64,000 nt of DNA. It comes from Lama glama (taxonomy: Eukaryota). Positions 3,309 to 54,356 of the stretch are shown piece after piece. The position numbers and the translations under genes are program-made. The notes under the pieces are model-generated. The model was not told the DNA's origin. It did not search any database and saw only the letters and a program-made list of their open reading frames with translations. The first letter of the stretch is position 1. Each line of letters starts with the position of its first letter. The stretch is taken from the NCBI GenBank assembly GCA_028534125.1, contig CM052816.1, positions 53,012,001-53,076,000 of the forward strand. Direction: 5' to 3'.

Positions 3309-4516
3309 ATTTAGTTTTTAATATTTGAGAGTAGTTTTTTTTAAATTGAAGAATAGTCAGTTTACAGTGTTGTGTCAATTTCTGGTGTACAGCATAATGC
3401 TCAGTCATACATGAACATACATATATTTGTTTTCATATTCTTTTTCACCATAAAGTACTACAAGATATTAAATATAGTTCCCAGTGTTACATAGTATGAA
3501 CTTGTTGTTTATCTACTTTATATATATTAGTTAGTATCTGCAAATCTTGAACTCCCAATTTATCCCTTCCCACCTCCTTCCCCTCCTGGTAACCATAAAT
3601 TTGCTTTCTACGTGAGTCTCTTTCTGTTTTGTAAATAAGTTCATTTATCTTTTTTTTTCTCAGATTCCACATATAAGTGATATCATGTGGTGTTTTTCTT
3701 TCTCTTTATGGTTTATTTCACTTAAAATGACAACCTCCAGGTCCATCCATGTTGCAGCAAATGGCATTATTTTACTATTTTTTATGGCTGAGTAGTATTC
3801 CATTGTATAAATGTACCAAACTTCTTTATCCATTCATCTGTTGATAGACATTTGGGTTGTTTCCATGTCTTGGCTATTGTAAATAGTGCTGCTGAGAACA
3901 TTGGGGTGCATGTACCTTTCTGAATTAAAGTTCCCTCTGGATATAAGCCCAGGTAAGACAAGACACTATAAACCTCTTAGAAGAAAACATAGGCAGAACA
4001 TTTTCTGACATAAATCTTAGCAATGTTCTCCTCGGGCAGTCTACTCAGGCAATAGAAATAAAAGTAAAAATAAACAAATGGGACCTAATTAAACTTACAA
4101 GCTTTTGCACAGCAAAGGAAAACATAAGCAAAACAAAACGATAACCTATGGAATGGGAGAATATATTCTCAAAAGATGAGACTGACAAGGGCTTAATTTC
4201 CAGAATAGATAAACAGCTCATACAACTTAATAATAAACAATGTAATCCAAAAATGGGCAGAAGACCTCAACAAGAAATTCTCCAATGAAGACATACAAAT
4301 AACTCATGAAAAACTGCTCAATATCGCTAATTATCAGAGAAATACACATCAAAACTACAATGAGGTATAACCTCACACCAGTCAGAATGGCCATCATTAA
4401 AAAGTCCACAAACAATAAATGTTGGAGAGGGTGTGGAGAAAAGGGAGCCCTCCTACACTGCTGGTGGGAATGCTGTTTGGTGCAGCCGTTGTGGAAAACA
4501 GTATGGAGATTCCTCA
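3309..4516 (-). mobile_element. 5'-inverted (twin-primed) L1 insertion with 16-bp TSD
   Basis: 3309-3953 is an L1 3' end on the - strand. About 3954-4516 is the adjacent upstream ORF2 segment on the + strand (ORF 4306: ...[37 protein letters not shown]). GAAGAGCATTTTATTT occurs at 3293-3308 and 4517-4532. Confidence 0.92.
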
Positions 4517-6289
4517 GAAGAGCATTTTATTTTTCAACACATCTGTCTTCCCTCACCAAACTGAACTTTTCAAGGGCAAAGACCAATTCTGTCTGTTTTT
4601 GGCATGTAGAGATACTCAATAAAAGTTTGAATCGCTTATTTGTATGCCCTGATAAATGTAGTAACATCTTTGTTACTTCTAGGAATTCTGTTCCCTGTAT
4701 CAGCAATACAATTGTTTTCCTAGTCTTTGTCACCCAGGTCTTGATGGTTAGGCTTTTGACCACCGAAATCTTGAACTATAACTTTCTTTAAGAAATCAGC
4801 TTTTCAGAAAAGAATTGAAGAAAGCAGTGTATTTAGTTGATGGCAAATGTCATTTGCTTGTAAAATAGCTAGTTTACCCTAAAGATTTTTATTCAGAAGG
4901 GAATTGTGTGGGATAATTGTGCAGATTAATTACATTGTGTAAATTAATAATGGTGTGGGAAGTATTTATTGGACTCTAAACATTGCAATTCTGTTGAGTA
5001 AGGATTTGATGATTGGTCATGTAAGGCTTCTGAAACCAGTATCATTGTCTTAACAAATTTAATTTTTTGGAAAATATGTCTATTAGCACACATTCTTATA
5101 ATTATCAGCCTACACTATCTAGAAATTTACCCCCTGTCAAATGAAAAAAAAAAAGTATCAAGTCAATAAAGTCTAGAGTGGCCCACTTACCTTCCTTACA
5201 TATCTTAATAAGTAGAATTTTGTGTGAATGAATTGCCCTGTGCATTAGGACTAGCCACAGTCACTGATGCTTAGAACTTTTAAATTAAAAGGTGAAAAAA
5301 AGAATTGCAGTGGTCGCAGGGCTTCAGGAAGGTCACGCACATATAGCAGCAGCCTTGCTGTGAAAGGCCAGGGGAGGAGAGTGAGTAAGACCTAATTGGG
5401 AAGAATTCTCTATCCCCGGCATAGTGCCTGCCAAACTACTCATAATTATTTGTTAAATGATCCCCTGACTAATGGCAGTTAAGCCAGAAGTGATGACTTT
5501 CTGCTTTAGGGAGGGACATAAAATGTACACTTCCTTTCGAAAGAGATTCTTGAGTAGGAACAGTTGTTATGGAGGTTTCCAGAAATAAAACTACAGAGAG
5601 CCAGGTTACACACAGGGAAGGTACCTCCCTTTCCTAACAGCTCTCCCAGGACTGAAGTAAATCGTGGGAGACGTGTGACACCCAGCCCATCATTATTAAC
5701 CTGAAGGGTCATTTTGCTAAAGACCAAGATTTGCCTTGATTGTTTTCTAATTTCTCTCCTTTCTATATTCTCCTTTCCCTTTAAATTTAAAGTTGAAAAA
5801 AATTTTAATTCTTTAAAATTAAAAAAATTAATTTGTTTAATTTTAATGTTAAATAATAACAGTTAAAATTCTCATTAGGACCTTAAGCTGCTTTAGGAAA
5901 AAAGGTGTTATGTAAATGAAAGAAACAAGCTTTATTTGGGCTCAAAAAAAGAAAAGTAAATGCTCTTAGAGAATTTTTACTGAAAACTCGGAGAATTTTG
6001 CATTGTAACGCTTCTATTACATACAGATTATCTCATGCTTGTTTTTCAGACTAAAAAAACTAATGATCATATTTTGAGTATATATTTTTGAATCATTTTG
6101 GTAATTGAAATTATAATTTTAAAAAAATCTCTATTGTTTGTCTTTAAGGCCTTACTTGATCTAAGTAAAACAGACTGTGATGATGGGCTACTTTGTTTAC
6201 CTTATACTTTTCAGTGTCATAGGGATTATATTGAATATAAACTTTTCCAGTAATTTACTTACTTGTTACCAGAATAATGTAGGTTTTTT

Positions 6290-7414: not shown

Positions 7415-8032
7415 TAGTCAATTCTAATTATTTGCAGTGGTTTTGTTCTATAAAGACACCACAAACATTGAATTAGTGAATATTGAACCGTTGTCCTAGG
7501 GGAAATGCAGGGTTGGATTCCTGTGAGCTTCTGGCCACAACATTTTCATCAACCAATCAATACATAACCTTGTTTGATGTGTGTTTCCATTTAAAGACAC
7601 CTTATTTAATGTATATTGTTGATTAATTACCATTGAACTCATGGCCAAAAGCACTGTAACACATGACTGAACAGAGCTTATATAACATTTTTTCTCCATG
7701 AGGCACATCACAGCCTTCTTGCACCTAGGAACAGGCAGCACTTCAGCACTGCTTGGGGGCCATTTGAAACAGTGAAAGCGCCAACAAAACACACAAGAAT
7801 GCAAAACTCATGGCGCTAAACAAATTGCAAAAGGGACACTTGTTCATAGTGTGAGAACTGAAACAAGAAGGCAGAGTATTGCCTTGATCCACCTCAGGTG
7901 GAAACGTGCATGTCAGGTCACTGGAAGAGACTAAGAAAGTACTTCAAGTATGGACTTTGGGGTTACAAACGCATTTTATTGAGTAGGCAAATTCACAAAT
8001 ACAGAATTTTCAAATAATAAAGATTGTAACTG
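7415..8032 (-). mobile_element. MER82-like (TcMar-Tigger) DNA transposon
   Basis: Degenerate terminal inverted repeats (tagtcaattctaattatttgc ... caaataataaagattg). The interior matches the recalled MER82 consensus. Confidence 0.75.
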
Positions 8033-8216
8033 TTTTAAAGAAACTTAGGATTGAATACTTAGAATATTCAAATATAAGGGAAAGTTTCTCTTATTTTCAA
8101 AGATGTGGGAGTTTTTGGTTAAGTGGAATGAATCATCCTCCCAGTTTCCATGTTCTGTTGTCCAGTGGAATAAAATTGACTGCTTTCAATCTATCATTTT
8201 GTTTTCTCCCCAACAG

Positions 8217-8373
8217 GGAACAACCTATCTTCAGCACCCGAGCTCATGTCTTCCAGATCGACCCAAACACAAAGAAGAACTGGGTACCCACCAGCAAGCA
8301 CGCAGTTACTGTGTCTTATTTCTATGACAGCACAAGAAACGTGTATAGGATAATCAGTTTAGACGGCTCAAAG
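8217..8373 (+). CDS. HOMER1: HOMER1 coding exon 2 (157 nt, phase 2-0), N-terminal part of EVH1 domain
   Basis: Acceptor ttttctccccaacag|G, donor AAG|gtaagt. Translates (G)[52 protein letters not shown], the Homer EVH1 start. Confidence 0.98.
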
Positions 8374-9227
8374 GTAAGTTACATTTGCTTTAAATAACCT
8401 TGCTGTTTTGCTTTGTACAGTATACACTTCAGTTTTATTCAGAAGATTTTTATCTTCATTATTTTCTTTTGAGTTTTAAAAAGTTACCTCTTGAAAAACA
8501 AAATTGATTGTTCTTAGGGTATCAACTTTTTCACCCAGTAAACTACTTGGATTAACCACCATGTATACAGAGAGAGTTATATGCCAAAATATTCTACAGA
8601 TTTAGGGTCAGTTTGATGAATATTCATTGTGTATCTGTTATGTCAGGCATTATGCTAGGTGATGGGAATATAGTGCAAACAGAATGGACACAGTTTCTAC
8701 TCTTGGAGCATGCAAGCCAGTAAGGAACAAGAATTCTTTTCAGATGTGCTTCCATAGCCTAGTAGACAGTTCAGTATCCCTAATTCATATGAAGTCTTTA
8801 ATATTAAATTCAATAATAAAGCTGACATCCATTATTCAGAAGAGAAGCAAATGGATAAGACCTGTTTTTATCTTTTAGGAGAGGCAGATAGTAAAATGTT
8901 TGACAGCATGGACTGCCTGGGTTTACATCTCAACTTTATCATCTGCTAAGTTTTTGACTTTGGGCAAATTATGGGTTTACTTCTCTCAGCCTCATTGTTC
9001 TCACCTCAGTACTGGTACTTGTAAGCACTGAGTTAATATCTACAAAGCTCCTACTTAGCTCAGTGCCTGATGGAGAGTATACCCTCAATGAATTCTGAAT
9101 AACACACATAAGTAAATACCAAACATTAACTTCTGGAGATAGTGTGTAGGAAGATGAGGCTTCCATTCTTCTCCTTCCAGCTTCCCTGATGCCATGAGAC
9201 CTTTTCACCCCCAGGAAAATTTCCCAG

Positions 9228-9470
9228 TTCAGTGTAGGGCTAAGAGCACAGACTCTAGAGCTGGACTGTCTGGTTTGAAGTTTTACTTTGCTGCTTACTA
9301 GCCATGTGACCTAGAGCAAGATAGTTAATGTCTTCATGCCTTAGTTTTCTCATCTGTAAAAAAGAATTCATATGAATACCTACATCATTACGTCATGGGA
9401 TTATCATGAAGATTAAATAAATTATTTTGAACACAAGCACTTAAAGTATGTATAGTAATCACTGTACAAA
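9228..9470 (+). mobile_element. MIR SINE
   Basis: MIR core: gctgcttactagccatgtgacctagagcaag...ccttagttttctcatctgtaaa. Confidence 0.75.
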
Positions 9471-10940
9471 CACTGATAATAATTGTTATTATTAATAATA
9501 AGCTTTTAATTATGTATTGCCTAGTGGGTTGAGGGACTAAAAGATAATTTAATGTTCAACTTCCTGTCTGCTTTTTCTGTATGCTCATTCCTTTTCTCCT
9601 TAACTAGATGATAGGCCCAAGGTGCTATTTGCACTTTGTCTTGCATGTAAGTGACTAAGGTGTATTTATTTGAATAATTGATCCTCTTTTCATTTTTACT
9701 CAGGATTTAAAGGACTTGGAGAATAGCAGTAGTTAATTTCTATGAAGCTTTATTTAATAAAGAATAATTTTGTCACATTTTGTAACTGTTCATGAAATTG
9801 ACAGATATTAATTATTATAATCTCAGACCCTAGAATGTTTATATCTTTCCCCTGACTCAAACTTTCAGTTCTCTATAATCTGTATTTCTCTCTTGGCCCA
9901 AACCACAGATAAGATGTAGTTTTTATTAGAGACGACAGTCAAATGACGTATAAAAGTAAATTAGTCCCATGTCCATTGTGATGAAATAATCCTCATGTAT
10001 TCTTCCTTCTGAAGCAGTATGAACTATTGCTTCTGTCAATCCCATTTTGAATATACTTTGCAGCTTGTAATTATTAGGCTCTTATATAACTCTTGTGAAA
10101 AGTTGTTTTTTTTGTTTCTTTGAACAAAATCTACCGTCTGTACCAGAGTTAAATTTTCTTACACGTTTTCTATTTTCTAGTTACTTTTCTAAACCAGTGC
10201 TATTAACTACTGCAGTTTCCCTCAGGAGTAGTTTTCTGGTAAGCAGTAGTGGTTTATTTGATGCAGCTAAATGAGTGTTTTTCTCCTCCCCACCCCCACT
10301 TCTATTCCTGCACAACATGATGGATTGGAAGAACCTTCGGTGCCCTTGATTAGAAAGCGTCCATTTATTCTCACTTAGGGCCTCTACAGTGCATGTAACT
10401 TGCTTGAAGGTTTTCTAATCATGCTGCAGAGACACCAGCATAGCCGAGGGCTGGAATCAGGGCACTATATGGTTGGTAATGACACAGCATTTCTGTGTCT
10501 TTTCCTTGAAAAGACAAGAGCTCTAAGATTGAGAGATATATTTTAAAGAACTAAAATTTTTCTTTTAAATGGATTCATAGTAGCATTCTATTCAAATAAA
10601 TCTGATAAATAACTGTAAGTGTGGAATCATCTGTCATTTTTAAGTTTTCTTCACTGATGAAAGAATTCCAGAACAAGTCATATGTAGGCAAGGAAAGTTT
10701 CAAAATGGGAATTAAAGTGGAACTCTTAAAAGCAAAAGAAGTTCATTTAAAATAGCTAAAACAGAAGGTTAGTAACCAGCAGCACATGGGTCCCTTATAT
10801 GCCTTATAAAGCCTGTGACTGCCTGCTGTGTGTGAGTTACTAGGATCACCTGTAAAACACCCTTATCTCCTTAGACATACTCAGAGCTCTGCTCAGAGGG
10901 AACACTCAAGGACCATCCAAATCCAAAGCCGTGCTTGAAT

Positions 10941-11122
10941 GGGGAGGGGATAGCTCAGTGGTAGAGCACGTGCTTAGCATGTACGAGGTCCTGGGTTCAA
11001 TCTGCAGTACCTCTGTTAATAAATGAATAAATATAGCTAATTAGCTTCCTCCTCTTCCCCCAGAATAGGCCAGAAAAGGAAAAATCCTTGCAACTTCAGA
11101 GAAATAATAAAAAAGAAATAAT
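10941..11122 (+). mobile_element. tRNA-derived SINE (camelid vic-1-like) with extended tail
   Basis: A box tagctcagtgg, B box gggttcaatc, A-rich tail. Imperfect TSD aaagccgtgcttg (10925) / aaagtagtgcttg (11123). Confidence 0.85.
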
Positions 11123-12691
11123 AAAGTAGTGCTTGCCAGCCCTTACCTTCTTGCCTCTCAGTCTTTATCCCATCCTGGTCTGTGGTCTTCACAGAACTTA
11201 ACACTCTGAAATTTCACTGGTCAGCTACTTGTTTACCTGTTCATTGACTGACTATTCTTGTGCTGGAATGTAATCCACAATTATATTGCCTCTCATTGTT
11301 GTATCTCAAGTTCCTAGAATTGTGCTAGGCATTTAATAGGTACTCACACACACACAAAAAGTTCAATATCCAAATGATTCCTTGCCATTTGGTAATATAT
11401 CCTGTCTCTCTTAGTCTTTCATTCTATGACAACCCTACGAGTTAGAGCAGTTGTTAACCACACTTTACAGGATCTAAAATGACATGCTAGGGAAAACAGC
11501 TTTTGAACTGAAGGGTAAAGCAGTATATTAGTATATAAATTTTGTCGGAGATAAAAATGCTTATCAAGAATAAAGGCTCTCATGTAACAACAGAGAATAT
11601 GTCTACTGTCTGTGAGATTGAAAGCAAGGAACCACTTTTACATCTACTTTAGTAGGACAAGAGTCATACATTCATTATTATAACTTCATCAATACCTGCA
11701 TAGCTCATAAATATTTACATTTATACTGTTGTTTATGTGGTAAACAGACTTAGCCGTGTTCTGAAAATGATTGATTTTTTTGTTTCACATTTAATAGTTC
11801 ACCAAATAACTGCTTATGGATTTGATAATATGTTTATTTTTATTATTATTAGAACCATTTTGTAATCTCGATCTCAGTTACAAAGTCATTAGGCTACTTA
11901 ACTAAAACCAATTATACACTTCTGTAGTGCTGGCACAGGGATGAATGAACTTAAGTTAATATGTTATAAGAATAGTTGAAATTTATTGTAGTGGTCACCA
12001 AAGTTAATATTTAATATACTAAAGTACTAGTTTTCTAAGAAACTATGTGTTAAACAGAAATGATAGTGATTCTCACTGCCGTGATTTTATACCACTTTGT
12101 ATGTGAAGAAGTAAAGCATATATTTAAGAGTTTGTTTTTCCCTTGAATAAAGGAAAATGTATTAAATGATTGAAAGTCTTTTTTGTATCATAATGTATTT
12201 CAGATAAGTTGGCTTTAAGAAAATTCTTAACTATGGATTTTAGAAAAGTGTCCAAATAGAAAATTTGTTCTGTTGCTGTGTTCATTTTTGGAAGACTCTT
12301 TGGAGAGGGAAAACTTGCTTTCAAATAAACAACTATTAAAACCTACTGGCTTTCAGTGAATATCATCCAAAATTAATAGATATTGATCCTAAGTGTTCAA
12401 AGGGAAGAACTGACCACATTAAAAATTCTTTAAAATTTCTTGCATCACAGGAAAACTTACTTTGATTGTGAAGTGTTGAAATTTGTGATAGAGTGCCATT
12501 ATACTTATAGTTCTATTATTACCATATTTCCACCCTGTCACTTACAATGTTAAGAACTATTTCTCTGTCTTTATGTATTTAACATTGTATCTCAATAAGA
12601 ATCTTAAGTTTATATGTAACTAAAAAGTCCTGTGCTTAAATGCCTGTTTGCTAATTTTTGGCTGGTTGCTCATACTTGTTTTATTTTTCAG

Positions 12692-12823
12692 GCAATAATT
12701 AACAGCACCATCACCCCAAACATGACATTTACTAAAACATCTCAGAAGTTTGGCCAATGGGCCGATAGCCGAGCAAATACTGTTTATGGACTGGGGTTCT
12801 CCTCTGAGCATCATCTTTCAAAA
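12692..12823 (+). CDS. HOMER1: HOMER1 coding exon 3 (132 nt, phase 0-0), EVH1 domain
   Basis: Acceptor ttatttttcag|GCA, donor AAA|gtaagt. Translates [44 protein letters not shown]. Confidence 0.98.
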
Positions 12824-15427
12824 GTAAGTTAAATCATAAGATCTGAGAGGAAATCTGCATTTTTCAAGTCAGATGTCTTAAATATATAACAGACAATGGA
12901 GAGTGTAAAATGCAAGAGAAATTTTTTTAATATTCTCAGAACAACTTTAGTGACTTTAGAGCAGAAAGTAAGAGATCATTGGATTCCTCGTCAATTGAAA
13001 AATTTATTGTATACATTAAAAATGGTCACCGTGGATTGAGAAGGATTTGTGTGGTTAACTCTCTGTGTGATAGGAAATAAAAGGAAGGGATTATCACTTC
13101 AGAATGGATTTTGCTGAGGAGTTAACACCGTTGGCTGAAGATGTTATGCAAGATAGGTAGACACTAAGTTCTTCTGGATTATGAAAACTCAAGCTGATAA
13201 TGATTTAGATTTCTGCCTTTTGGCATCATAGCAGGCACATATAGAATTCCTGTGTTCCTGTTAGGAAAGTGGTGAGAATTACTCTGAGCAATCTGATGCA
13301 ATACAGCATACAGTCTAATAGACACCATGAAGAGTTCTCGGAACTGACCAAGTGAATTACTGTGGTCAGAGGGGCTGGTGAAATACAGAGCATCACCAGG
13401 CTAGATACTGGAAGTAAAACAGTTGTCTGCATATAAGTAAAAGCCATGCAATGTTCTTACCAGCAGCACCTTGAATTCTTGTGAATGTCACACAGAAAAA
13501 GTTTATAAGGAAAAGGAAACGATCTCAGGATAATAAGATCAGGGGGATGAGGATTACTGACTTTTGCTCTTCAGATTTTATGCTTACCAGACCTAAAGAT
13601 TTATGGTGAAAACTGCTGTGTTTAAAGCATTTTGTTAAAAGGATGACCCTACATTTGAAACATGTTACCTTTGATTTGGTATACATAGAATCTGATGGCT
13701 TGAGAGTTGAAATTGCTCAAGTGTAGGGTATTTAGGCTCTTGTTAGATGCACTCTGTTAATACTTAAGTTAAACCTAAGCTAATTATTACAGAAATCACT
13801 CAGTCTTAAAAATCAGTTATTTAAAAAAAAAAACTTACCCTTTTGTGAATATTTATTGACTTGAGGTTATAAGATAGTTTAATAATTAAAATAATCTTTG
13901 TTTGCTTTTGTTTTAGTTGTAAATTTTCCTTAACACTGTTGTTTTCAAGTGCTTTTGTTAAATTTTTGATATAAATTACACTTTAACGCTCAGTTTTATG
14001 ACTTTTAAGTTTTGCCTTGGTGATTATAAGTCATTCTCTGTAAGATGATTAAAACAAACAAGTGTTACCTGATTTCATTTCTCTAACACCCATCATATTC
14101 TCTAAATACATTTCCTGAACTGTGGTAAAGGAATAAGTTCTAGACTCAAAGTATTTCAACATAACAGGGACACAGTCATCTAGTTAAGCATTGCCCCTCC
14201 ATAAACAGTTCCCTTAGGAAATTACACAGTTATTCTAATATTTTTGCTCTTACTCAGAACCTTTTTGGAGCTTTTCTTTTGAAATAATCTATTAAAGCCT
14301 ATAGCAAATAAATTAAAACTGTAATTATATTACATTTGCTGAATTTCTTGACAACAAAGGAACTAAATTGTGGATTAATTTCTGAAACCTGCATGAAATG
14401 ATTTTTAAGCCTAAGTAATTCTGACTATAAATTAAGTTTGTTTTTTTTCACCATGTCTTTCAAGTTACTGGGCAGATAGCTAATGTGGTAAAGAAATAGT
14501 TTATTAAATTCTGTCAGTCATATTGGCTCCTCTTATCCCGTCTTTTCTCTGAGAATGGGTTTTATATATAAACAATTTTATTTTTCCTCTTTAAAGTTAA
14601 CAAACATTTGCTTTTTGACCAAATTTACTGCTAGTGAATCCTAGTGTTCTGAGGGTGAAATGACTATTAGGAGACAACTCTAGTTTATTTATTCACTAGA
14701 CTTGGTCCAAGTCTATAATCAGTCTCTTCAGAATATTTTGGCCCAGCGATGACAAAATCATGACTTACTTTCCAAGCCACCTTGAAGGCTAATGTTGGTG
14801 CTTTGTAGACTGTAAGGGACCCAAAGGAGTATGTAATCTTTTATAGTTGAAGCAAGCATGTAAATATTCTGGCTTGTTTTATCATTAAAAACTGTACGTG
14901 AAACAGTTATACGTCAAACATCATAAAGGTTTGAAGAAGGCTGTGAAGGCAGTTCTAGACAAGAGCCTCTCAAAATCAGGGAGAGCAGCAGCACGGAAGG
15001 AAATGTGTGGTCTCCAGAGGTTGATGTATGAGGAAAATTCCAATTTAATTTTCTCCGTGATACACAAACATAGTATCCTTGCTGATTACACTCCCAAACT
15101 GTACCCTCACCCCTTGGTCTTATTAAATATATATGAGCAACCAAGGAGGGACATGTGTAAGCTATCTGAGACCAAACTCTAGCTTCGTTGTATCATGATG
15201 TTTTTAAATGAGATTTGTCAGAGTACTCTATGGTGCGCAAGCAAATGTTTGATATTAGGCTTATTTTCCCGTCATTTTCATATTACACCTGTAATTGATT
15301 TGAGGGCTTATTGGCTTGTGTAAGAGTCAGCTATTCGGTAAAATGGAAGAAAACGAAGATAAAAGTAGGCAAAATTGAAATCGACCCGTTTTTATTTGGT
15401 TAATGTCTATAGTCTTTATACATTTAG

Positions 15428-15520
15428 TTTGCAGAAAAGTTTCAGGAATTTAAAGAAGCTGCTCGACTAGCCAAGGAGAAATCACAAGAAAAGATGGAAC
15501 TTACCAGTACACCTTCACAG
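15428..15520 (+). CDS. HOMER1: HOMER1 coding exon 4 (93 nt, phase 0-0), end of EVH1 and linker
   Basis: Acceptor catttag|TTT, donor CAG|gtgggt. Translates FAEKFQEFKEAARLAKEKSQEKMELTSTPSQ. Confidence 0.97.
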
Positions 15521-15844
15521 GTGGGTATCTAATTTCTATTCTTATTTATAAGTCTTTTTCATTTTCAGTGGTATCCTTTACGCCAGAGATAAGTTTGGGG
15601 GGAAAAATGGCAAAATTAAGGTGATTTCCAAAGTGGACATAAAAATGCACCCTTCAGTTAATCTGTACTCATAGATGAAGGATTTTTTTTCTTTTTTTCT
15701 TTTTTTCTTTTCTATATGCCAGTGTCTTCAAGAATCTCAGGGGGAAAAAATCAGCTTAATAATTAAAACTCAGGTTTTTTTAATGTGCATATAACTTAAA
15801 AACAATTGTACATAAAGAGCATAGATTGGCCTATTGTTTGTTTT

Positions 15845-16360
15845 CTGTGTTCCGTGATGGTCAGTTGGGTGCAGCCACAAGAGGAGACACAGGAGAGGCT
15901 TGGGAAAACAAAAGTTTGTTATACTCACAGGTCCTAGAAACTGGGGGCATGGCACACCTCTGAGGGGTACCAGGGATGCCTCAAGGTGGTCAGGAGGCAG
16001 AAAGCAGGAGCAGAAGGGAATACCAAGGCTAGAGCCCTGTACTGGGCTTTCTCTGGGAATGGCAGGGGAGAGTGAACAGTTTGGGATTGGCTAGTCTGAG
16101 TCATTTCATTGAGCTCTGAACTACAGGGGTGGACCCTGGTTGCCTGCTACTGGGCTCTTAGATGACTAAGGCAGAGGAATATTGCCTCCTGGGATGCAGG
16201 GGCCAGAGAGAGGATGTGTGGCTCGGCCAGGGTGGGGGTGGGGGTTAATTTGCATATCAAAGGCATGTTCCCACCTTACCCCTGCTCTCTCTGAGAACTG
16301 GCTTGCCAGAAAGGTTTTTAAGATGTCAGAACATCACAATATACAGAAAATGTATATAAA
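15845..16360 (-). mobile_element. Solo ERVL-type LTR (MER76/MER74-like)
   Basis: GC-richer block with sharp edges in an AT-rich intron. Contains tttgttatactcacaggtcctag and atatacagaaaa motifs recalled from these LTRs. Confidence 0.55.
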
Positions 16361-17964
16361 CAGTATAGTTTGTTCTACCTGATTTCAAGGTATACTTAAA
16401 TCTGACAGTTGGAACATTTACATCTTAGCACTGAAACCCAAAAGGTTATAGGTTTTATAAAAGTATCACTTTTTCCTTTAACAAATGAGTTAATACCTGT
16501 TATTTGTCCATCATAGTCTTTCCTTAGCTGGAAATTAATTATACCTCCAAATAAAATTCATTAAATAGTTACATTTCAGTACTTTTTCAAATGTTTTAAT
16601 GTATATAATATGACTCATAGAATGCCAATTATTTCCAGTTTTCTTAATAATAGACTTCTAAAATTAATCTTTATTTCAGTTGTCATCTTAAGAATAAGGT
16701 TCAGCTTTTTGCTGAGTTCTTCTCTGTAGTAATTATTGGTTTTTGAAATATAGTTAAGAAATTTTGTAAAAGGAAGGATTGGATGTTACAAATGGTTCTC
16801 TGGAAAAATAGCAGTTGTAGCTGGTTTACCTAAAACTTTCTTGAGGAAGTTAATAGGAATTGCCTTGGAATTTTGTGACTGGCCAAATGATTGGCACATT
16901 TTAGAAAATGGTTTGCTCTTCACCTTCTTTCTCATCCCTGGCAGCCAACTCTATTTGATAAACTCTACTGGTGTAAAGAGTTTTGGGTTTTTCAGAGGAA
17001 AGGAGAGCTCTATTAACAATGCTTAGAGTACATATTTCCTCATAGACTAAAGGTGTACTCTGGATTGAAGCCAAAGCTCTGTTATACCTCCTTTATACTC
17101 GCAGTGACCTGGAATGACGTGAATGATCATTTTGAAACTTCCCTTGAATCTGTCTTCCCTGAGTGTTATGGTAGTGTAGTTACGCTTTTAAGCATAAAAC
17201 CCTATTTAAAATTTAGTACCAGTACATTAAAATTTAGTACCAGTACACGTTGGGAGCTCCCAGTTCCTCGGGTGAATGATTCTAGTATCACAAGAGGATG
17301 CTACAACACATTCAATAAGAGCATACTCAAAAGACTCCAATAAAATTGTAGTAGATTACACTTTGCCATTGTACTTAGTTCCTGTTTCTCTAATCATAAC
17401 TTGTTTTTGTTTAATTGACCATGAACCATTACAAGTTGCTGCTAAGATACCTGCTCCTCTTTGGTGGAAGGAATGTCTTTAAGCCTTTACTTTCGTCAAA
17501 GGACTATTTCAAAGATGTTTACATTTGGAAAGTGCTGTGAAGTGTAAGGCATAAAGAAATGTCTTAAGTTCATTTGTATTTGAAAGCAAAAATATACTAA
17601 CCTTAATTTACCCTTTCAAAATATTTGAAATCTGATTGTTAATTTACAGAAGCCAGAGAAATAGGGGGGAAGTATTTTCATTTCTTTTTCCTCCCCTTCC
17701 TCTTTTTCATGCCAATCCCTTATAGAGGTCATTAATATTTCTATTTTAGCTTGACTTGTATGACCTCTGGCTACCCTAACCCTGCTCAGCTAGAAAGCAG
17801 AGCTTGATTCTCACGGGTTTAACCCAATCTACTAAATGAATGCTCTGCCTGGAGAATAGAATATTATTCAGGAATTCAGCAAGGGGATCAAGAAATTAAA
17901 TGGGATAATTGATAATAGTACACATTCAGTTGGTCATAGCTTTTGCCTTTTTTTTTTGAGGTGG

Positions 17965-18370
17965 TGTAACAAACTGGTAAAGTGTGTAGATTTTCAGGTC
18001 AAAGAGACTCAAATATAAATCCTTTTTTCTGTCACTATGTGATCCTGGGAAAATTGCTTAACCCAAATCTATCTATACACTTGTAACATGAGTTTTATGT
18101 TGCTTACCTTATAAGATTATTGAGTGGAGTAAATATGATAATGGCAGTGTCCGTTAGGCAGTGTTACACAGTAATGGCAATAATGTAGACTCCAGAGCTG
18201 GGCTTTGAATCTGGGCTCTAACCCTATTAGTTTTCTGAACTTAAGCAAGTTACTATTTTCTTAATCTATAAAATGGGAGTAAGGACAATATTTCCTTACA
18301 GAGTTATTGTGAGAATTAAATGAGGATTATAAAGTGCTCAGTGTACAATAAAGGCTTAATAAACGTTAAC
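17965..18370 (+). mobile_element. Two adjacent MIR remnants
   Basis: MIR-like text such as ctatgtgatcctgggaaaattgcttaa and atctataaaatggga...gttattgtgagaattaaatgag. Confidence 0.65.
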
Positions 18371-18473
18371 AACTGAGTTGGTGATGTGGCTGTAATGTTA
18401 AAGACGATGATGTAAAGCCTTGACATAACAGTTTTTTAGAAAAATAGAGATGCCTTAACTGACTAAAGCTTCC

Positions 18474-18636
18474 ATTAGAAGCCCCTGGAAGAGTTGTTAA
18501 AACACAATTGCTGCATCCCAAACTTAGGGTTTCTTATTTAGAAGGGCTGAGATAGGGCTTGAATTTCTGTTTCTTACAAGTTTCCAGGAGATGCTGATGG
18601 CTGTTGATCTGGGGACCACACTTTGAGATGCAGTGC
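18474..18636. mobile_element. MER5A (hAT-Charlie) remnant
   Basis: cattagaagcccctggaagagttgttaaaacaca...gatgctgatg..ggggaccacactttgag. Confidence 0.75.
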
Positions 18637-19410
18637 TATAGACAAATCAGTCTATCTCTCTAAAAGCTTGTAATGAAAGGAGTCTGGCATGTTTTCTGGT
18701 CACTTCTCTCTTCTTAGACTCTTGAATTAAGATTGTACCCATGATAATAAATGTGTGGTGGTGTCAGATAATCTTAATGTTGATTTCATCAAGGTAACAT
18801 CTTTAGGAATAAGTTGAATCACATATTAGTTGTTAGTTTCTTTTGTGTATCTCTTTAAATAACACATTGATTTAGAACTTTGCCTCTGTCAGAGATTTAC
18901 GTTCTCCCTTTTCCATGGGAATCTTTTAAACAGTCTGTTTGATATAAAATCAAGAGTGATGATTGACTTTAAATCTGAAGTTTCTTAGAAAGTTCACAGT
19001 TTTAAAAACACTGTATTTCAGTTAACTTGTTAGGCACGTTCCTGAGAATATACATTGAAGAAAAAAGATCTGTATAATCAAATAGTATTCAAATTTTTCT
19101 TCACTAGAGTTTAGAAAAAAATAATTTTAGCTGTCAGTTGACAAAGACTTTTAAATTGAGTAAAGTCTATTTACTCCATCACTTGTTTGTAGGCAAACAA
19201 AAGTCATGGGTTTTTCCCCCATTTAAATTGTCAGGTTGTATAGCATGGAACATATTGTAGTTGTTATCTTGATTTATAATTAATATATGTAGCTTTCTCC
19301 TTAAGATTTTTTAGACTTCACTTTATAGAAAAAGTGGATTATATGTGTGTGAGTATATGTATACGAAGAAAAAGTTTCTTTAGCTTTGTTATTAATACCG
19401 TAATTTGGGT

Positions 19411-19541
19411 GGGGGAAGGTATAGCTAGTGGTAGAGTGTGTGCTTAGCATGCATGAGGTCCTGGGTTCAATCCCCAGTACCTACATTAAAATAAATACCT
19501 ACCTACCTAATTACCTCCCCCCAAAAAATAAAATTTAAAAA
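19411..19541 (+). mobile_element. tRNA-derived SINE (vic-1-like)
   Basis: gggggaaggtatagctagtggtagag...ctgggttcaatccccagtacc...cctaattacctcccccc, followed by an A tail. Confidence 0.9.
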
Positions 19542-19620
19542 GTACAATAATTTTTTAAAGTATTCATTTTAGTGATAAAATTGTATTTACCCAAATAGCA
19601 CAGGCTTATTGTAACTGATT

Positions 19621-19709
19621 TTTTTTGGAGGGAGTAGGGAGGTAATTAGGTTTATTTATTTATTTATTTCTTAATTAAGGCATTCTACCACTGAGCTATA
19701 CCTTCCCCC
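19621..19709 (-). mobile_element. Internally deleted vic-1-like SINE with perfect 14-bp TSD
   Basis: TATTGTAACTGATT at 19607-19620 and 19710-19723. The A box is present, the B-box region is missing, and the 3' cctaattacctccc motif is present. Confidence 0.88.
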
Positions 19710-20224
19710 TATTGTAACTGATTGTTAGGATCTCTGTGACTGGTGTTTGTACCCATGAAAGTCAGTTGATCCTCTCTAGAGAGTAGTTCTTGAATCTATC
19801 AGATCAGAAGTTTGAACTGTATCATATCTTAGAACATTTAAAGTGCAATAAATCTCAAATGTTTTAGGTTTTCTTTAACAAAGGTGTCACTTGCTATAAA
19901 TGTATTTTTTGAAAGGTAGTCTGCATTAGCCAAGTATTACTTCCCTAAACTATAATATTTATATATCTAGTCCACAAATATACCATTAGAATTAGTAAAT
20001 GCCTATAAATTAACATGATACCCTGTTACTATCATTAGACAAGTATGGTTTCACCGAACCAAATGCCACAAGAACAACTTTTACAACCTCAGGAAAGGTT
20101 CACTAGAATTCTCTGGTATTATTGTTTGCCCTCCAAAGTAAGGACAGTGTAGATAAGATATGTGTCTTTAATCATGTTACTTGTCTCAGTGGAGTATTTT
20201 TCTCCTTCTGTATTGTTTATGTCC

Positions 20225-21790
20225 TAGATGTTGGCAGTGAAAATAGAAAAGGAAGAAATTAGACGTAATGGTGAAATTGACTGAACTGGGAGGAAATGCA
20301 GGAACTGAGGGAGTGATGAAGGCAAGAGAGAATAGTAAAGAAAGATGTTAAGTTAGATGTTCTTGAAACTTCTATTCTTGGTTTGTAGCATCAACTTCAA
20401 AGGAACATTCCTACTTCAGACAGTGAATTTGAATCCTGTTGGGAGATACAGGTGAATAGTGGGTAGTTAGAAATTTGGAATTGGAGCTAAGTCTCAGGAG
20501 TCATCAACAAATGAATAATAGTTAAAGCTGTAGGTGAGAATGATATCCAGGAAAAAAATAGGATGGAAAGACAGGAGAGACAGGGGTCAAAATTTGTCAC
20601 TTAAGATTGTCACTTAAGAAATTTGAGGAAGGTACAGGGGAAGACACAGAAGTAGGAAATGAAATAGCAGAGAATGTTAGCACAGAAGTCAAGAGAACTG
20701 CATTTTAAATTGGAGACAGTGATTTGGTACTTCAGGGGCAGAATTCCAATAGGTTGAGACTTAAGGGTGCAACAGCAAACTGGAGTTCACTGGTAATTAA
20801 AGGTGGACTGTTGGTGAAGGAAGGGCAATGTGAAGTAGCTTCTAGAATGAACGGAGGTAGAGTTAGTGACTTTGGGCTGTTCTTGAGGCCAGAAGGCTTG
20901 GTAGTAAGAATAAGGTAAGATATTTGGTTCTCCTGTAGGAGAAAAAGGGTTAGCATAACCTAATAATAATAATCTCAGGAGGATGTGGAGTTAAGAATTT
21001 TTTCCTAGAATGTGTGTGTAGGAGTAACATGAGTGTGTTTTTAAATGTAAGGAAGGAGTTAGGGAAGGAAAAAGAGAATAGAAGGAAGGGATCATTGATG
21101 CAGCGTTGTGCAGAAGAACGTAATGTTTTGAGAGGGGAGGGTGGAAACAAATTAGCAACTTCATCTGAGACAGGAGGGAAAGATAAAAATGGATTTAGAT
21201 GCAAATAGGTGGGAAACTGAGAAAGTCTATGCCAGTTTATTTCTATTTTTTTCTGTGAAGAAAGAGATCATTCTCTAAGAGGAAGTACAACTGAAGAAAG
21301 AGAAGACTTGAGCAGAGGTTTGGAACTGCAGTTAGGTAAAGAAAAAGAAGAACCAAGTGTAAGTAAACTAAGGGATCCTCTGCACTTCAAGAGCATAACT
21401 GAAGTTGGAGCTCAAAATTATTTTCATGACACGACCCACTGTATTTAATGTATTTTCTCTGATAGCATTTGGTAGCTTGGGCACATGAAAATAGGGAATG
21501 ATGATATGAAATTGGAAATTGTCAAGATGGGTGTTGTGGAAGGTAAGGAATCCAGAAAATTGTGATGATGCTGGTGAGGATATAATTAAGGTGATTGCCT
21601 TTCTGCTGTAGGCTGACTGTGGAGAGAAGTAAAGCTGGATTGAGCTGGACAATGTAGCAAAATAGCAGATGGCCAAGAGATCTAAGTCTTGATGAGGCTG
21701 AAGAGCAGATGGAAAGGGAGTGGGAGAGGTTGGGAAGATAGGAGGTTGTACAGCACAAGCCTTCCATGTCTGTTGGAATCAAAACCAGCA
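20225..21790 (-). mobile_element. Old L2 LINE fragment
   Basis: About 1.5 kb of purine-rich degenerate sequence typical of antisense L2 ORF2. Boundaries approximate. Confidence 0.6.
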
Positions 21791-24700
21791 GTTGATGAGT
21801 TAATCTGAAAAGTCGGTTAATGTAAAGACTTTTTTTTAAGATTCTTTTAAATTATAAATTAAAATTCAACAGTATTACATTTCATTTGTTCACCAACTTT
21901 TTTTATTTAAATCTTAAGTCTTTTCTTTAAATATAAATCTGTTCATTGGAATTCATGTTCTCTTTCTTACATAAATCACCAATAACTGATTGTAATTGCA
22001 TGAGTTTGTTTTCATTAAGTAGAGCTAACCCTTGGCCCTGCACACTCCTACTGCAGCACATACACCTGAGAGTAGGCTGGTGCTACCACTCTGAAGGTCT
22101 GGCCTGGAGTGAGGGCCAACATCATTTTCTTCCATGTGATTTAAGATATTTCTAGGGCTTTTTGCTTTTTTTTGGGGGGGGGAGCTTTCTTGCCGCTCTA
22201 TAAATAGAGTAGAGGGAACAAATTCTTAAGCACTTTCTGAATCTTACATCGGTGCTGAGGCGCCTTTTATGTAATGGGGTCATGTGTTAGTTTTGGCTTC
22301 CTTGATACTCTCAGATTTTAATATGCAAATTTTTTTCCCAGTTTGCCTATTGTTGTAGATTATATGTGTAGGTGTAGGGTGTAGGGAGAATTTCTCAGAA
22401 ACAGTGAGATGTGAGTTTTATTTTCTCAAAATAAGGATGTAGAGGTGAAAGAAATTCGTTAAATCTCAGTTTTTATTTATATTTTACACTTTTTATTTTT
22501 ATCAACTATGATCAAAGAATATGGTATTTGATAATTTTTTCCTTAAATGATTACTGTAGAAGTGACTAGCCACTCTGTTTCTAAGGAGAAGTTATCCTAC
22601 TTTTTCAAAAGTTTGTAGTCTAATAAATATACTTCCATGTTTTTTATTTTAATGTTTGATTTAAAGATGTAAAATGTTGGCTTTATGAAAGTTAAGGTTT
22701 TTAAGGAATAACTAAAGTTAGATGTTTAGAAAATTACACAAAGTTTATATTAAAAAAACAATTAGATGTTTGGAATATGTTAAGTAAAACAAGTTTCACA
22801 GTGCTATTTTTAGCATATGTTAAATTTCTGGAAGGTTTCACCCAATACTTTTGGCTACCTCTAGGGTAGTTGGAGAAGCTGGAGAGCAAAGGAGATTGAT
22901 TTCCCTTATTTCTGTTGGATTCTTTCTTATTTTCATGAGCAAATATTAATTTTTTTAAACCTCCTTAAAAATAAAACATGTTCTGGGCTTTTTTGTTTTC
23001 ATTTTAGATATAATGTTTAGGATAACTTAAATATGCCTTTTGTTAAACACAGCTAATGTTCGAGCTTTTGGAAGAAAAGCTTGCTGCAGTGAGATACTGG
23101 CATCATTGCAACCTCCATCGCTTTCTTCCTTCTCTCCTTCTTAGTTGCTTCAGCAGCATCACCATTTCTAGCCTCCCCAACACCCATGCCTCATAATCTT
23201 TCTTATTTTCCCCCAGAAGGTAGTAAGAACCAGAAATCAAATGACTATTCCTCTTCCTTTCTCTTTTGGTCCTAATCTATTTTTGTCCCTCATACTGTTA
23301 TCATCCAGTTCTAGCAAATCCATAGTTGCTAATACTGGTTATGCCTTTTCAGGATAACAAGGTAATTTGCCTCTGTTATCATTTTCACTGAATCAGGTCC
23401 TGGCCAACTTACTGTTTAGTTCATTGGACAGTGAACCTTGATTATTTTAGTTTGGTTTGGCCTTTCTTGGAGAAAAATTTTCCTGATTTATTGAAACCAA
23501 ATGTGAATACCTCATGGTTTCTTACTGGCTGCTTGAAGTTTTTCTAGCTAATTGATATGGTCCATAACTGATCTAGAAATAGTCATTTTGGATACTGTTC
23601 CCATTATTCACTTAGTGAGATTTGACTTTGTTGTTGAACAATTTCATGTTGTCATATTATCCTACAAACTATTCATGCATTGACTATCAGTTAATAGGAA
23701 CAATAGATTTAGGAAAAAGATTTAAAAATAATGAAATTGAAGATCAAACTAGAGGTTCCATTAATAATTAAAAAATAGTTAAGTGATAATGTGAAATCAA
23801 GAAAGTAGCCTTTTGATCTTTGATGGCTTGTACAATTTATAGCATTATGGAATTATTAGTAAAATATTTAAATGTGAAATAAAACACATACAACAATATA
23901 AAACTAGAAGCCCCAGAAAAGAAAGTTGGTCTTACTACATTAATATTTTCTATATTTCTTCCTAGTCCTTCTTCATATGCAATACTTTTTCTGTGATCTA
24001 AATATCTCCTTATATCACCCTTTTTTTCTAGTTATAAGCATTTTCCTATATTACACATATTCTTCTTCTTTTTATTTGAGGAAATAGTATATTCTTTCAA
24101 GCTGACAAATTATGACCCATATCCCTTTTGGACGCTGGTGTTTTAATTTTCTTCCCCAACATAACCTCGTATTTCAGTTGTTAAGTTTTATTGCCCAGAG
24201 ATTGCAAGGGGTCCACCAAGCTGCTCTTTAACAATCTGGTGCTAGTACCTTCCCTGGTTAACAGGTTTATCAAATGACCTCTCATTCTGATTTCTAGTAT
24301 CACATTTAGGTAGTCTGATGATGGCAGTCACGAACGTGTCAGCATGAGCTTCGTTTTAAATTCCATTTATTTTCCAGTGGGATAAATTTAATTTACATCC
24401 ATAGAAATAAGACAGGAAATTTTGCAAAGAAAAATATTTTCATTATGAGTAGCAGGCAAGAAAAGCTAAAATACACTAACATCATTATATATAATATGGT
24501 ATAGAAATATTTCTGGTTACTTTTCTAAATGACTGTTGGAATTGAAAACAATGGCAGATAAGAAAAATTAAGACTTGTTGAAGATTCATTCTCCTCGCCT
24601 TCCTACCCTCCCAAATAAAAAATAAAATCTTGCATTTTTGTCCCATTTTTTTCTTCTCAAGTAATTATTGAATATTTTTTATTCTAATCAATTAATTGAT

Positions 24701-25000
24701 TATATAAATGCAGAAGTTTTTCGGTTCTTTGAAACTACACTTCTAAATTGTGTTATGTTTACATCTTTTTTTTTAATGTTTACATTTTTAAATTGTATTC
24801 TTTCAATTTTCTTGTGTGTTAAAAAATTGTTTCTCCTTCACAGTTCATTTTTTAAGTCTTTGACGCAAATGTCAATTGAAATATAACCATACTTCATAAG
24901 TAAACATACATCAGAGTCTTTTTTAATTTTTAGATGATCTTGTGTATTTTAACATATATAACTCTTTTTTATTTCCACTCCCTTTTTTTTTTTTTTAAAG

Positions 25001-25140
25001 GAGTCAGCAGGCGGGGATCTTCAGTCTCCTTTAACACCAGAAAGTATCAATGGGACAGATGATGAGAGAACACCTGATGTGACACAGAACTCCGAGCCAA
25101 GGCCTGAACCGACTCAGAATGCATTGTCATTTTCACATAG
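25001..25140 (+). CDS. HOMER1: HOMER1 coding exon 5 (140 nt, phase 0-2), contains Homer1 P-motif SPLTP (25025-25039)
   Basis: Long poly-T acceptor ttttaaag|GAG, donor TAG|gtacag. Translates ESAGGDLQSPLTPESINGTDDERTPDVTQNSEPRPEPTQNALSFSH(S/R). Confidence 0.97.
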
Positions 25141-25174
25141 GTACAGATTCAATTCAACCATCATGATTAAGTAA
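25141..25174 (+). CDS. HOMER1: Homer1a-specific C-terminal tail (exon 5 read-through into intron 5), (R)YRFNSTIMIK*; predicted 186-aa protein
   Basis: In-frame continuation AGG TAC AGA TTC AAT TCA ACC ATC ATG ATT AAG TAA. Closely matches the rodent Homer1a tail as recalled (RYTFNSAIMIK). Confidence 0.92.
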
Positions 25175-35540: not shown

Positions 35541-38500
35541 ATATTTAATATTTATTCTGGCTGGTTAGTGATTTCTTCCCCCTCAGTGGAAGCCCCAACA
35601 GTTATATAGAGAGATTTCCTTCATAGGTGCTTTGGCATCTATAATACGAGGTTAATGAAAAAGCATGTTAGCAAAAGTGACTTTAGAAAGTATATTCAAT
35701 CCTTTGGCTTAATTGTTTTTTGTAATTGGATCATTTTAGGGTATGCTTTACTCACAGGCTAAGTTACTATTGAAGAGACAACCTAAAGCCTCTCTGCTCT
35801 ATGAAATAATAGACTTTTTTCCTCTAGATATATAGAGAATAGATATTAGTAATTTGTTAAATTATATGAAGAAGCACATAATTGGGTGTTACCTGAGTCC
35901 AAAACACTGCTATTGTATGGTAGTCATACCTTTGCAGCTTCTTTTAAAAGGCATAGCTAAGCCATCCTGTCATTATTATATATTGTCACAAAGTCTTAGT
36001 TTCCGTAGCAAGGAAGATGTACTGTATCTTAGAGGTCTCACAGCCCACAGTACCTACTAGGTGTCAAGCCCTGAACTAGACGTGTATCATGTTTTAGTTT
36101 TTTGGAGAGAAATAGGTGTCTTGGGCAGAAACAATAAAGAAGAAATTGGACTCACTTCCCTTTCCCGACTTCCCACTTCTGTGACCACATCTAGTTTTGG
36201 AACATAGTGGAGTCACCATTTCTCATGGAAGAAGAAGATCTGCAGTTTAGCCTAATTGAAAAGATGCAAATAGTCCCTGACTGAGAGACTAACTAACATG
36301 GAAGAAACATAACACTTTAAAAAGACCCAATCATCACAGATTTAACTTTGAAGAGTCAAAAGAACTGTACTTAACTGTAAGAATTCCTGAGTATGCCTAG
36401 ATAGCATTTAAGATATCTCTGATTAGAAAAGGAAAAAATGACTTGGCGTGGCATCCTGTGTTTTGTTCCTTTGGCAAAATGCTATTATACTTGCTCCACA
36501 TAATTTTCAGAAGTCTTAAAAGCTCTTGATGGAGAAAATGTTCTGTTTCTTAAAAATCAAAATAGCTATTATTCCTGATAAAGATAGTGAAAAAATAAGC
36601 AACCTGATTTTTCTGGACTTCAAAGTAGAACTCGTTCATAGATGCTGCTTCTTTTAAGACTTTAATGTAGCTATTTTCCTACATGTAATCTGATACTCAT
36701 ATCTTGGTCCATTTCTTTTCTCGTCACCTCACAGGGATGTTGTGAGGCAAATTTTAAATGTTCCTAAGAAAAGTGTAGAATTAATAACTCTTGACTGTCT
36801 CTGTTGATAGTTTATACAATCGTAAGATTTTTATCTTAAAAGTTACAAGTGCTTTCCTATAGTTATAAATGGATTTTAGGTGTAATAAAATGGAAATAGA
36901 GAATGAAGTTGTATTTGATTTATCACTGAGCATCGTTGTAAATAATTTAACTGCATTAATTGTTGCATTGTTTTTTTTTCCAACCAAAAGCTTTTATACA
37001 ATTATAATTAAAGAACAGTAAAAGTGTCTGTTTTCCCCTTTAATTTAGTTGAGATTTAATTATTCATATCTCTTAGATAAAAGGTAATCCAACTCATCAA
37101 TTTCTAATGAAGAGAAAATGAAAACTACAATGAAATAGATATAGTTTAAAGGAAAAAAATCATAGAGATGCCCAGAATTCAGACTTTGAATAAAACTCTA
37201 TATTATTAGGTAGAGGTGACATTTTAGTAATATTTTCACTAAAAATAAGAATAGAGAGATGATAAGCACTTGCTTTACCTCACAGTAAAAAGAGTTAGAA
37301 AAATTACGTTACTAAATAAAGGAAATATGTTTAAGTATTAGTTAAAATTCATGTATAGAAAATTTTTGATAGCCTGCAGAATTTGATTTCATTTGTACAA
37401 TTTCATTTTTATAACATATTTTGGAAAGTAATTGTATAACATTTTCTCCTCCGCATAAATCAACCAACCCAGTTTTTGCAAATCAAACAGATATAGCACA
37501 TGAATTATCTGATAATGGCTCCCAGAGCAAGGTTTTTAAATTGCTGTCAAATGTCTATTTTCTACTGCTTTATTCTCACTGTGTATAGTATCAAAAGAGA
37601 AATCAATTCAAAGTTAACTTATGGATTCAGGCATATAACCTGGCATTTATAAACAACTAATTTAGAAAATCTTTTCTAAATTACCATATTATTTAAATAT
37701 TTGTTTTATAACTTATTCTATATGCTATAAAAATGGGAATGGATATAGTCTTAGGTTAAGTGTGTTGGTATCAAGAAAGCACTTGAAATTAGAATGTTGT
37801 ATTTTTTGTATGCCTCACTTAAAAAAAATTTAATACCTTTAAATGAACCTTGTACACTTCACTTCACCAGAGATCCTGCTACTCCCTACTGTCATATATA
37901 CCTCAGTTCACTCACTTATGTTGTTTAAGTTGTTAATTTACTTGATTTGTATGGTGGGAGTAACTATAGAAGGGGCCTTTCTTTGGCTAACTCAGTTTAT
38001 CCCTCTTTTCAACATTTTCATAGTTTGCCTTCATTTAAGCATTGTATGCATACATTCATACCTACTACTGATATGAATGATATAAATTGGCTCATAGTAT
38101 ATTATTCTTCCGGTTTAATGCTGGTATGTTTGAATACTGCAGCTAGAATAACAATTTGGAAATTCTAACCTCATAATAATGAGGAAAGCACCATGTAAAC
38201 AGTGAGCTAGTTTGAGGATAATTATGAAATTAGTGATAAAATTTATGTATAAGCATTAATAAAAATAAGGCTCCTTTTAAAATAATTCTGAACCTGGTTC
38301 CTTTTGCCCATACTGATACTTTTTTAACATTAAAAATGATATCTAATTGAGATAAGTTATTTTTTATTAAAAAAATTAGAATGTTTTTCTTTTCCCCCCA
38401 AATATGATAGCATCTAATACAATATGTGTATTCTTCTAACCAATCTATCATAGAAAGCAAATATTAAAGTTGGTAAACATGTGCTTCAGAAATAATGAAG

Positions 38501-47762: not shown

Positions 47763-47855
47763 TTTTTTTTTCTTTTTAGTGCAGGTACTGGAGATTGAAC
47801 CCAGGACCTTATGTATGCCAAGCATGCACTCTACCACTGAGCTATACCCACCCCC
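47763..47855 (-). mobile_element. Short tRNA-derived SINE (vic-1-like) with 12-bp imperfect TSD
   Basis: Reverse complement reads gggggtgggtatagctcagtggtagag...ctgggttcaatctccagtacc plus poly-A. TSD ctacagtaagct (47751) / ctgcaataagct (47856). Confidence 0.9.
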
Positions 47856-54199: not shown

Positions 54200-54356
54200 T
54201 TCAGCAATCAGCAAACATTGGGAGGCTGAACTGGCTACCCTCAAAGGAAATAACGCCAAACTCACTGCAGCTCTGTTGGAGTCCACTGCCAACGTGAAAC
54301 AATGGAAACAGCAACTTGCTGCGTATCAAGAGGAAGCAGAACGTCTGCACAAGCGG
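54200..54356 (+). CDS. HOMER1: HOMER1 coding exon 6 (157 nt, phase 2-0), start of coiled coil of long isoforms
   Basis: Acceptor ttattttag|T, donor CGG|gtaagt. Translates (S)SAISKHWEAELATLKGNNAKLTAALLESTANVKQWKQQLAAYQEEAERLHKR. Confidence 0.97.

Follow-up and report, generated by a model that had tools for sequence, protein, structure and literature searches.

The 64,000-nucleotide (nt) stretch of llama (Lama glama) DNA analyzed here (assembly GCA_028534125.1, contig CM052816.1, positions 53,012,001 to 53,076,000 of the forward strand; hereafter the window, numbered from its first letter) carries exons of the gene for the synaptic scaffold protein Homer1, among them exons 2 to 5, the four exons that make up the circular RNA (circRNA) known as circHomer1. 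Joined into a circle, these exons can be read in the native protein frame without ever reaching a stop codon. The stop-free circle is a real property of the sequence, and it is a generic one that does not go beyond chance. We consider it very probable that the frame stays open simply as a side effect of introns of matching phase, and that the circle acts as RNA.

Exon anatomy, reading frame, and domain content can all be read from the DNA. Homer1 lies on the + strand of AT-rich sequence (GC content, 0.29 to 0.38), and exons 2 to 5 are each bordered by AG and GT. Exon 2 (8217-8373, +; 157 nt) finishes codon 2 with its first base and continues with 52 codons (residues 3 to 54) that make up the first half of the EVH1 domain; it matches the Pfam WH1 profile (PF00568; length, 111; gathering cutoff, 22.4 bits) over profile positions 9 to 55 with 53.7 bits (E value, 2.3e-14) and aligns with residues 3 to 54 of the Homer EVH1 structure 1ddv_A (E value, 1.3e-31), all seven of the PDB sequences matched being Homer 1, 2, or 3. 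The second half of the domain comes from exon 3 (12692-12823, +; 132 nt, 44 codons, residues 55 to 98), which matches WH1 over positions 61 to 101 of 111 with 47.5 bits (E value, 1.9e-12). Exon 4 (15428-15520, +; 93 nt, 31 codons) encodes the end of the C-terminal EVH1 helix and the start of the linker, and its translation is 100% identical to residues 99 to 129 of public Homer1 proteins. Exon 5 (25001-25140, +; 140 nt), a Pro/Ser-rich linker with SPLTP at residue 138, supplies 46 codons and a final AG and thus ends in phase 2. No Pfam family was matched by exon 4 or exon 5 when each was searched singly. Against rodent Homer1, exons 2 to 4 are 98 to 100% identical at the protein level and exon 5 about 91% identical, exon 5 reaching 98% with its best public match.

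For the circle, exons 2 to 5 were joined by coordinate, the end of exon 5 onto the start of exon 2, and three laps were read. The four exons (157, 132, 93, and 140 nt) add up to 522 nt (174 codons). Read in the native frame (offset 1, G|GAA), three laps show no stop, while the two nonnative frames contain 36 and 21 stops, or 12 and 7 per lap. The codon across the back-splice is formed by the AG of exon 5 (25139-25140; exon end ...CAT AG) and the first G of exon 2, giving AGG (Arg). Two of the 11 ATGs of the circle stand in the native frame. One (12722-12724, +; lap position 63; context CCAAACATGA) is Met65 of Homer1 and lies inside EVH1, and the other (15494-15496, +; lap position 119; context GAAAAGATGG) is Met121, with A at -3 and G at +4; the remaining nine ATGs are out of frame, and the open reading frames (ORFs) that begin at them have only 1 to 52 codons. 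A circle lacking exon 4 would have 429 nt and is likewise without a stop. An earlier note on this DNA had put forward the 522-nt, 174-codon sum with the coordinates, the phase-2 ends and the Arg codon at the back-splice, the stop-free frame, the in-frame ATGs at 12722 and 15494 with the favorable bases around the latter, and the frame-keeping loss of exon 4. Direct reading bears out the coordinates and sum, and the joined exons reproduce all the rest.

A rolling-circle ORF (rcORF) is defined in the methods of PMC9242994 as an ORF of at least 20 amino acids that begins with NTG and meets no stop on the repeating circle sequence. With no stops and in-frame ATGs at 12722 and 15494, the exon 2-5 circle has the sequence features of such an ORF, and by this definition it is a predicted rolling-circle ORF, a type that catalogues list for thousands of circRNAs. 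How little this says about the Homer1 circle in particular can be seen from the gene itself. The circular frame has no stop because all four exons are coding and the introns on either side, 1 and 5, share phase 2, and 4 of the 10 contiguous blocks that can be formed from exons 2 to 5 have a length that is a multiple of three, as have 11 of the 21 blocks from exons 2 to 7 (about half), all of them stop-free as circles. The caveat in the earlier note that any circle of phase-matched coding exons shares this property is correct, and it carries most of the weight. In published data, passages of PMC9242994 report host-frame rolling-circle ORFs in 14% of full-length human circRNAs, and passages of PMC6487579 report infinite ORFs in 8% of AUG circRNAs. 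No sequence feature remains that translation of the circle alone would explain.

Our preferred explanation is therefore largely arithmetical. Introns 1 and 5 (the latter at 25141-54199) each cut a codon after its second base; as both are in phase 2, exons 2 to 5 sum to a multiple of three, so that joining exon 5 back onto exon 2 would preserve the protein frame, and no stop is found in that frame because the exons are coding. The endless frame would then be a side effect of intron phases and would not have been shaped for translation of a circle. The circle itself is most likely a regulatory noncoding RNA; the literature describes it as a binding partner of HuD/ELAVL4 and a competitor of Homer1b mRNA. 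We infer that it forms in the llama as elsewhere and undergoes no appreciable translation. An exon 2-5 Homer1 circle is described in human, mouse, and rat neurons in the passages available to us, and passages of four circHomer1 papers label it noncoding or without coding potential, the title of PMC12496186 among them. The available text of PMC7577899 and of a review, PMC11919710, describes action at the RNA level via HuD/ELAVL4 and the Homer1b 3' untranslated region. The 79-amino-acid ORF predicted in a passage of PMC12249824 belongs to a different, three-exon isoform.

Several observations weigh against this explanation. In the passages at hand, the noncoding label is asserted, on the grounds that the start codon in exon 1 is lacking and that no internal ribosome entry site (IRES) is predicted, and the passages on circHomer1 report no test of the exon 2-5 circle by ribosome association or mass spectrometry. 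In the narrow sense, a description of the circle as lacking coding potential is contradicted by its two in-frame ATGs, one of them in a strong context, and by the absence of a stop. HOMER1 is absent from the eight searchable supplementary files of PMC9242994 (junction peptides, 646 genes) and from eight supplementary files of PMC5387669, both studies of circRNA translation; this speaks for the explanation, but these absences are weak evidence, the material being nonneuronal or from the fly. The circle is also abundant, being, according to parts of the published texts, the top HOMER1 variant in human entorhinal cortex at 440% above HOMER1A (PMC8430762), mainly cytoplasmic, dendritic (PMC11953392), and tied to eIF4A3 in its biogenesis; an exon junction complex (EJC) with eIF4A3 at a back-splice junction is reported in a passage of PMC11263353 to recruit eIF3 and support internal initiation, and circles without stops are reportedly translated better than those with stops (passage in PMC9242994). 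Finally, the circle contains two copies of the hexamer AAGAAG, which PMC9242994 names as IRES-like, and 3% of mononucleotide shuffles reach that number. The other IRES-like hexamer of that study, AATTCA, is absent from the circle, and 16 DRACH sites are present. We dismissed the two hexamers and the DRACH sites as evidence of translation, such short motifs being found in almost any coding sequence.

Homer signaling depends on the number of EVH1 domains that are tied together. Homer1a is short and monovalent, and Homer1b/c are long forms that multimerize through a coiled coil. One lap of the circle would encode 174 residues (19.56 kDa and an isoelectric point of 6.6, both computed), comprising the full EVH1 domain without Met1-Gly2 (residues 3 to about 111) and a linker of about 64 residues with SPLTP. 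It is sound to conclude, conditional on translation, that the product would consist of EVH1 repeats and 64-residue linkers joined via a single Arg. Initiation at Met65 would begin inside EVH1, while initiation at Met121 would yield a 55-residue leader followed by whole EVH1 units; from either start, the first intact EVH1 would come only past the junction, and a second would not be complete until more than two laps had been read. After a slip of -1 the ribosome would meet 12 stops per lap and after one of +1 it would meet 7, leading to quick termination. The earlier note had proposed a covalent poly-EVH1 scaffold as a third valency class for Homer. The conditional product stands, both in frame and in EVH1 content, but its translation found no support in our computations or in the passages available, so that a third valency class would depend on a putative translation to which we assign a low prior. 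Compared with Homer1a, the product would share EVH1 and linker and even the Arg after ...SFSH (a G follows the AG in both); it would differ in that Homer1a ends 10 residues past this Arg and Homer1b/c run into exons 6 onward, the circle product having neither tail nor coiled coil.

Public proteins were searched with exon 5 alone, and all figures given here are from the best 120 of 216 matches. Met65 is kept in 90 of 90 proteins with the flanking motif and Met121 in 98 of 99, from fish to mammals. The span from E3 to H175 measures 173 residues in 39 of the 50 proteins that have both landmarks and 142 to 271 residues in the other 11. We dismissed the conservation of the methionines and of the span as a sign of circle translation, since constraint on the linear protein explains it; Met65 and Met121 are ordinary conserved Homer1 methionines. 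Read-through from exon 5 into exon 2 was found in none of the 120 public Homer1 predictions, which is a weak negative, as assemblies drop rare forms. A late QPIF occurs in nine proteins, eight of which are N-terminally extended models and one of which (P0044) has an Ania-3-type tail.

What would have to be true if the frame were used? For rolling-circle translation, ribosomes would enter internally (through EJC/eIF4A3, N6-methyladenosine, or short IRES-like elements), initiate at Met121 or Met65, and continue around the circle several times, and the resulting covalent EVH1 chains with their 64-residue spacers could cross-link PPxxF-type ligands without a coiled coil. A stop-free frame with two ATGs and a whole EVH1 per lap would allow this, the circle is abundant, cytoplasmic, dendritic, and eIF4A3-linked according to the passages cited above, and there are precedents in circEGFR, circ-E-Cad, circCORO1C, circASPH, circALTO1, and the tau 12->7 and 12->10 circles (in the text available from PMC11263353) and in circPSAP, circPFAS, and circABHD12 (likewise from PMC9242994). 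Nevertheless, we give this possibility only a slim chance. Evidence from ribosomes, peptides, or blots was not found, and HOMER1 was named zero times in the supplements searched; a full-text search found, among the passages available, none joining circHomer1 with rolling-circle translation, which is not proof of absence. The open frame itself is expected by chance. Concatemeric products are also described as scarce and degraded by the proteasome (passage in PMC9242994). A more general skepticism comes from PMC6487579, which in the parts available holds that back-splice reads in ribosome profiling (Ribo-seq) data do not stem from translating ribosomes and that no circRNA peptides were found. 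It is fair to add that, in the same parts, infinite ORFs were left out of the conservation and Ribo-seq analyses of that study. In its most specific form, circHomer1, one of the most abundant dendritic circRNAs, would be translated locally, where an EJC with eIF4A3 at the back-splice recruits eIF3 and Met121 starts EVH1 chains with SPLTP; we regard this as very improbable. If it were true, such chains would bring mGluR, Shank, or IP3R ligands into clusters with no need of the coiled coil and irrespective of competition by Homer1a, and the phenotype of a circHomer1 knockdown would be partly a protein effect.

Translation might alternatively be sparse and short, with ribosomes leaving after about one lap through drop-off or frameshifting, so that the product is a single EVH1 with its linker, monovalent like Homer1a, or an unstable fragment, and no new valency class arises. 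The many stops in the -1 and +1 frames and the 9 of 11 ATGs that are out of frame would fit such an outcome, as would the proposal in a passage of PMC11263353 that a -1 frameshift onto an out-of-frame stop ends rolling-circle translation and the statement in a passage of PMC9242994 that the circPSAP product is mainly single lap. No evidence of translation was found for this reading either, no slippery site was found, though none was sought, and its chance seems to us just as slim. A junction signal, should one be seen on ribosomes or in peptides, might also come from rare linear mRNAs produced by exon repetition or trans-splicing (exons 1-5, 2-5, and 6 onward). Such an mRNA would be coding, since the 522-nt block is divisible by three, and its product would be a capped, finite Homer1 in which EVH1 occurs twice. 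Products of this kind are stated to be indistinguishable from circle-derived ones in the passage of PMC6487579 on plasmid artifacts. A duplicated EVH1, however, is present in none of the best 120 of 216 public Homer1 matches, and we met no report of exon repetition for Homer1; we regard this source as extremely unlikely. We thus continue to favor an open frame that arises as a by-product of intron phase in a circle acting as RNA.

Several known systems invite comparison. The four exons correspond by homology to those of the HOMER1 circle circHomer1/circHomer1a (hsa_circ_0006916), and the mouse circHomer1 sequence of exons 2 to 4, in the part given in PMC12249824, keeps both ATG contexts; the circle in print is treated as noncoding, and the llama circle is a predicted one. 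With the rolling-circle ORF circRNAs (PMC9242994; circEGFR, circ-E-Cad, circCORO1C, circASPH, circPSAP, circPFAS, and circABHD12), it shares a length that is a multiple of three and a host frame that is stop-free and start bearing. Those cases, in contrast, come with junction peptides, tagged reporters, or blots, none of which were found for the Homer1 circle, and the latter does not include the start codon of its host gene. Among neuronal circles with demonstrated products, tau 12->7 comes closest: together with tau 12->10, it likewise derives from a neuronal gene and is a coding-exon circle of a length divisible by three that repeats a binding module. The multimeric tau products were obtained via expression constructs and needed a start codon or adenosine-to-inosine editing, and the passages available describe no such result for Homer1. 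The AUG circRNAs of PMC6487579 are, according to the parts available, likewise abundant, conserved circles of coding exons, and translation is not needed to account for the features of their ORFs; circHomer1 has no exon with the annotated start codon and hence is not an AUG circRNA.

The stop-free Homer1 circle is thus a real but generic property that carries a testable translation hypothesis with a low prior. Links have been drawn between circHomer1 and schizophrenia, bipolar disorder, Alzheimer's disease, and cognitive flexibility, and if the circle made EVH1 chains, knockdown studies that have been read as RNA effects would need to be read again. As matters stand, the gain is more modest: the published statement of no coding potential is not literally true of the sequence, and available Ribo-seq and proteome data from brain would allow the hypothesis to be tested at little cost. 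As much applies to in-frame exon circles by the thousand.

Such a test has to reckon with the junction residue, as the same AGG (Arg) beside Homer1 coding sequence arises from three joins (at 25139-25174 and 8214-8217), namely, the exon 5/exon 2 back-splice, the Homer1a read-through, and intron 1 read into exon 2, because the splice sites read AG|G. The Homer1a-type tail results from reading through the exon 5 donor (25141-25174, +; ORF 24962..25174) and gives (R)YRFNSTIMIK followed by TAA at 25172-25174; it is also present in the public mammalian proteins P0006, P0011, and P0015 and in bird fragments. Reading of intron 1 into exon 2 (ORF 7987..8397) gives ...LPNREQPIF, and public gene models with odd N termini also end in ...R-EQPIF (P0037, P0087, and P0119). 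Since the junction Arg is also made by Homer1a and by intron 1 read-in, tryptic peptides that flank it are not specific to the junction.

The flanking introns say little about back-splicing. Only two inverted matches occur between intron 1, of which 8.2 kb lies in the window, and intron 5, both of them distant and weak (3337-3489 versus 52612-52762, 72% over 154; 4057-4519 versus 51200-51663, 65% over 486), and within 4 kb on each side of the circle, the top-scoring inverted match covers 20 nt (E value, 0.047), not above the same-strand control. These weak inverted repeats neither favor nor exclude back-splicing, which papers on circHomer1 credit, in the passages available, to RNA-binding proteins and intronic complementarity. 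The repeat of about 150 nt at 3337-3489 recurs twice in intron 5, at 42664-42805 (+; 87%) and at 52612-52762 (-; 72%). Within the sequence at hand, the latter copy is the sole candidate for intron pairing across the circle, the distances from the exons being 4.7 kb and 27 kb.

Downstream of the circle, the gene continues with exon 6 (54200-54356, +; 157 nt), whose first base completes the AG of exon 5 to AGT (Ser), exon 7 (58111-58221, +), and a partial exon 8 (58813-58893, +), exons 2 to 8 having been placed in order by tblastn with P0044, P0047, and P0048. Many rodent Homer1 proteins (P0024-P0033, P0047, P0050, and P0069) have 12 extra residues (SAGDRT.../SVGDRT...) between exons 5 and 6; the implied mini-exon of 36 nt within intron 5 was not located in the window by tblastn, a method for which it is too short. 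A segment of intron 5 (36195-36334, +) is 62 to 71% identical to the C-terminal tail of the short rat and mouse Homer1 proteins P0044 and P0048, and we take it to be, probably, an alternative terminal exon of the Ania-3 type.

The introns hold a few further features. Three tRNA-like Rfam matches of 32 to 50 bits lie in introns 2, 4, and 5 (10945-11015, +; 19415-19485, +; and 47780-47851, -) and are most likely the heads of tRNA-derived short interspersed nuclear elements; ORF translations near the first two share the motif ...HVLSM.EVLGSI.... Within intron 4, the region 20000-22000 is purine rich, with the highest GC skew (+0.355) and AT skew (+0.095) of the window. Its sole tandem repeat measures 26 nt (20594-20619), and its minus strand contains unusually long stop-free frames of up to 136 codons (21368-21778).

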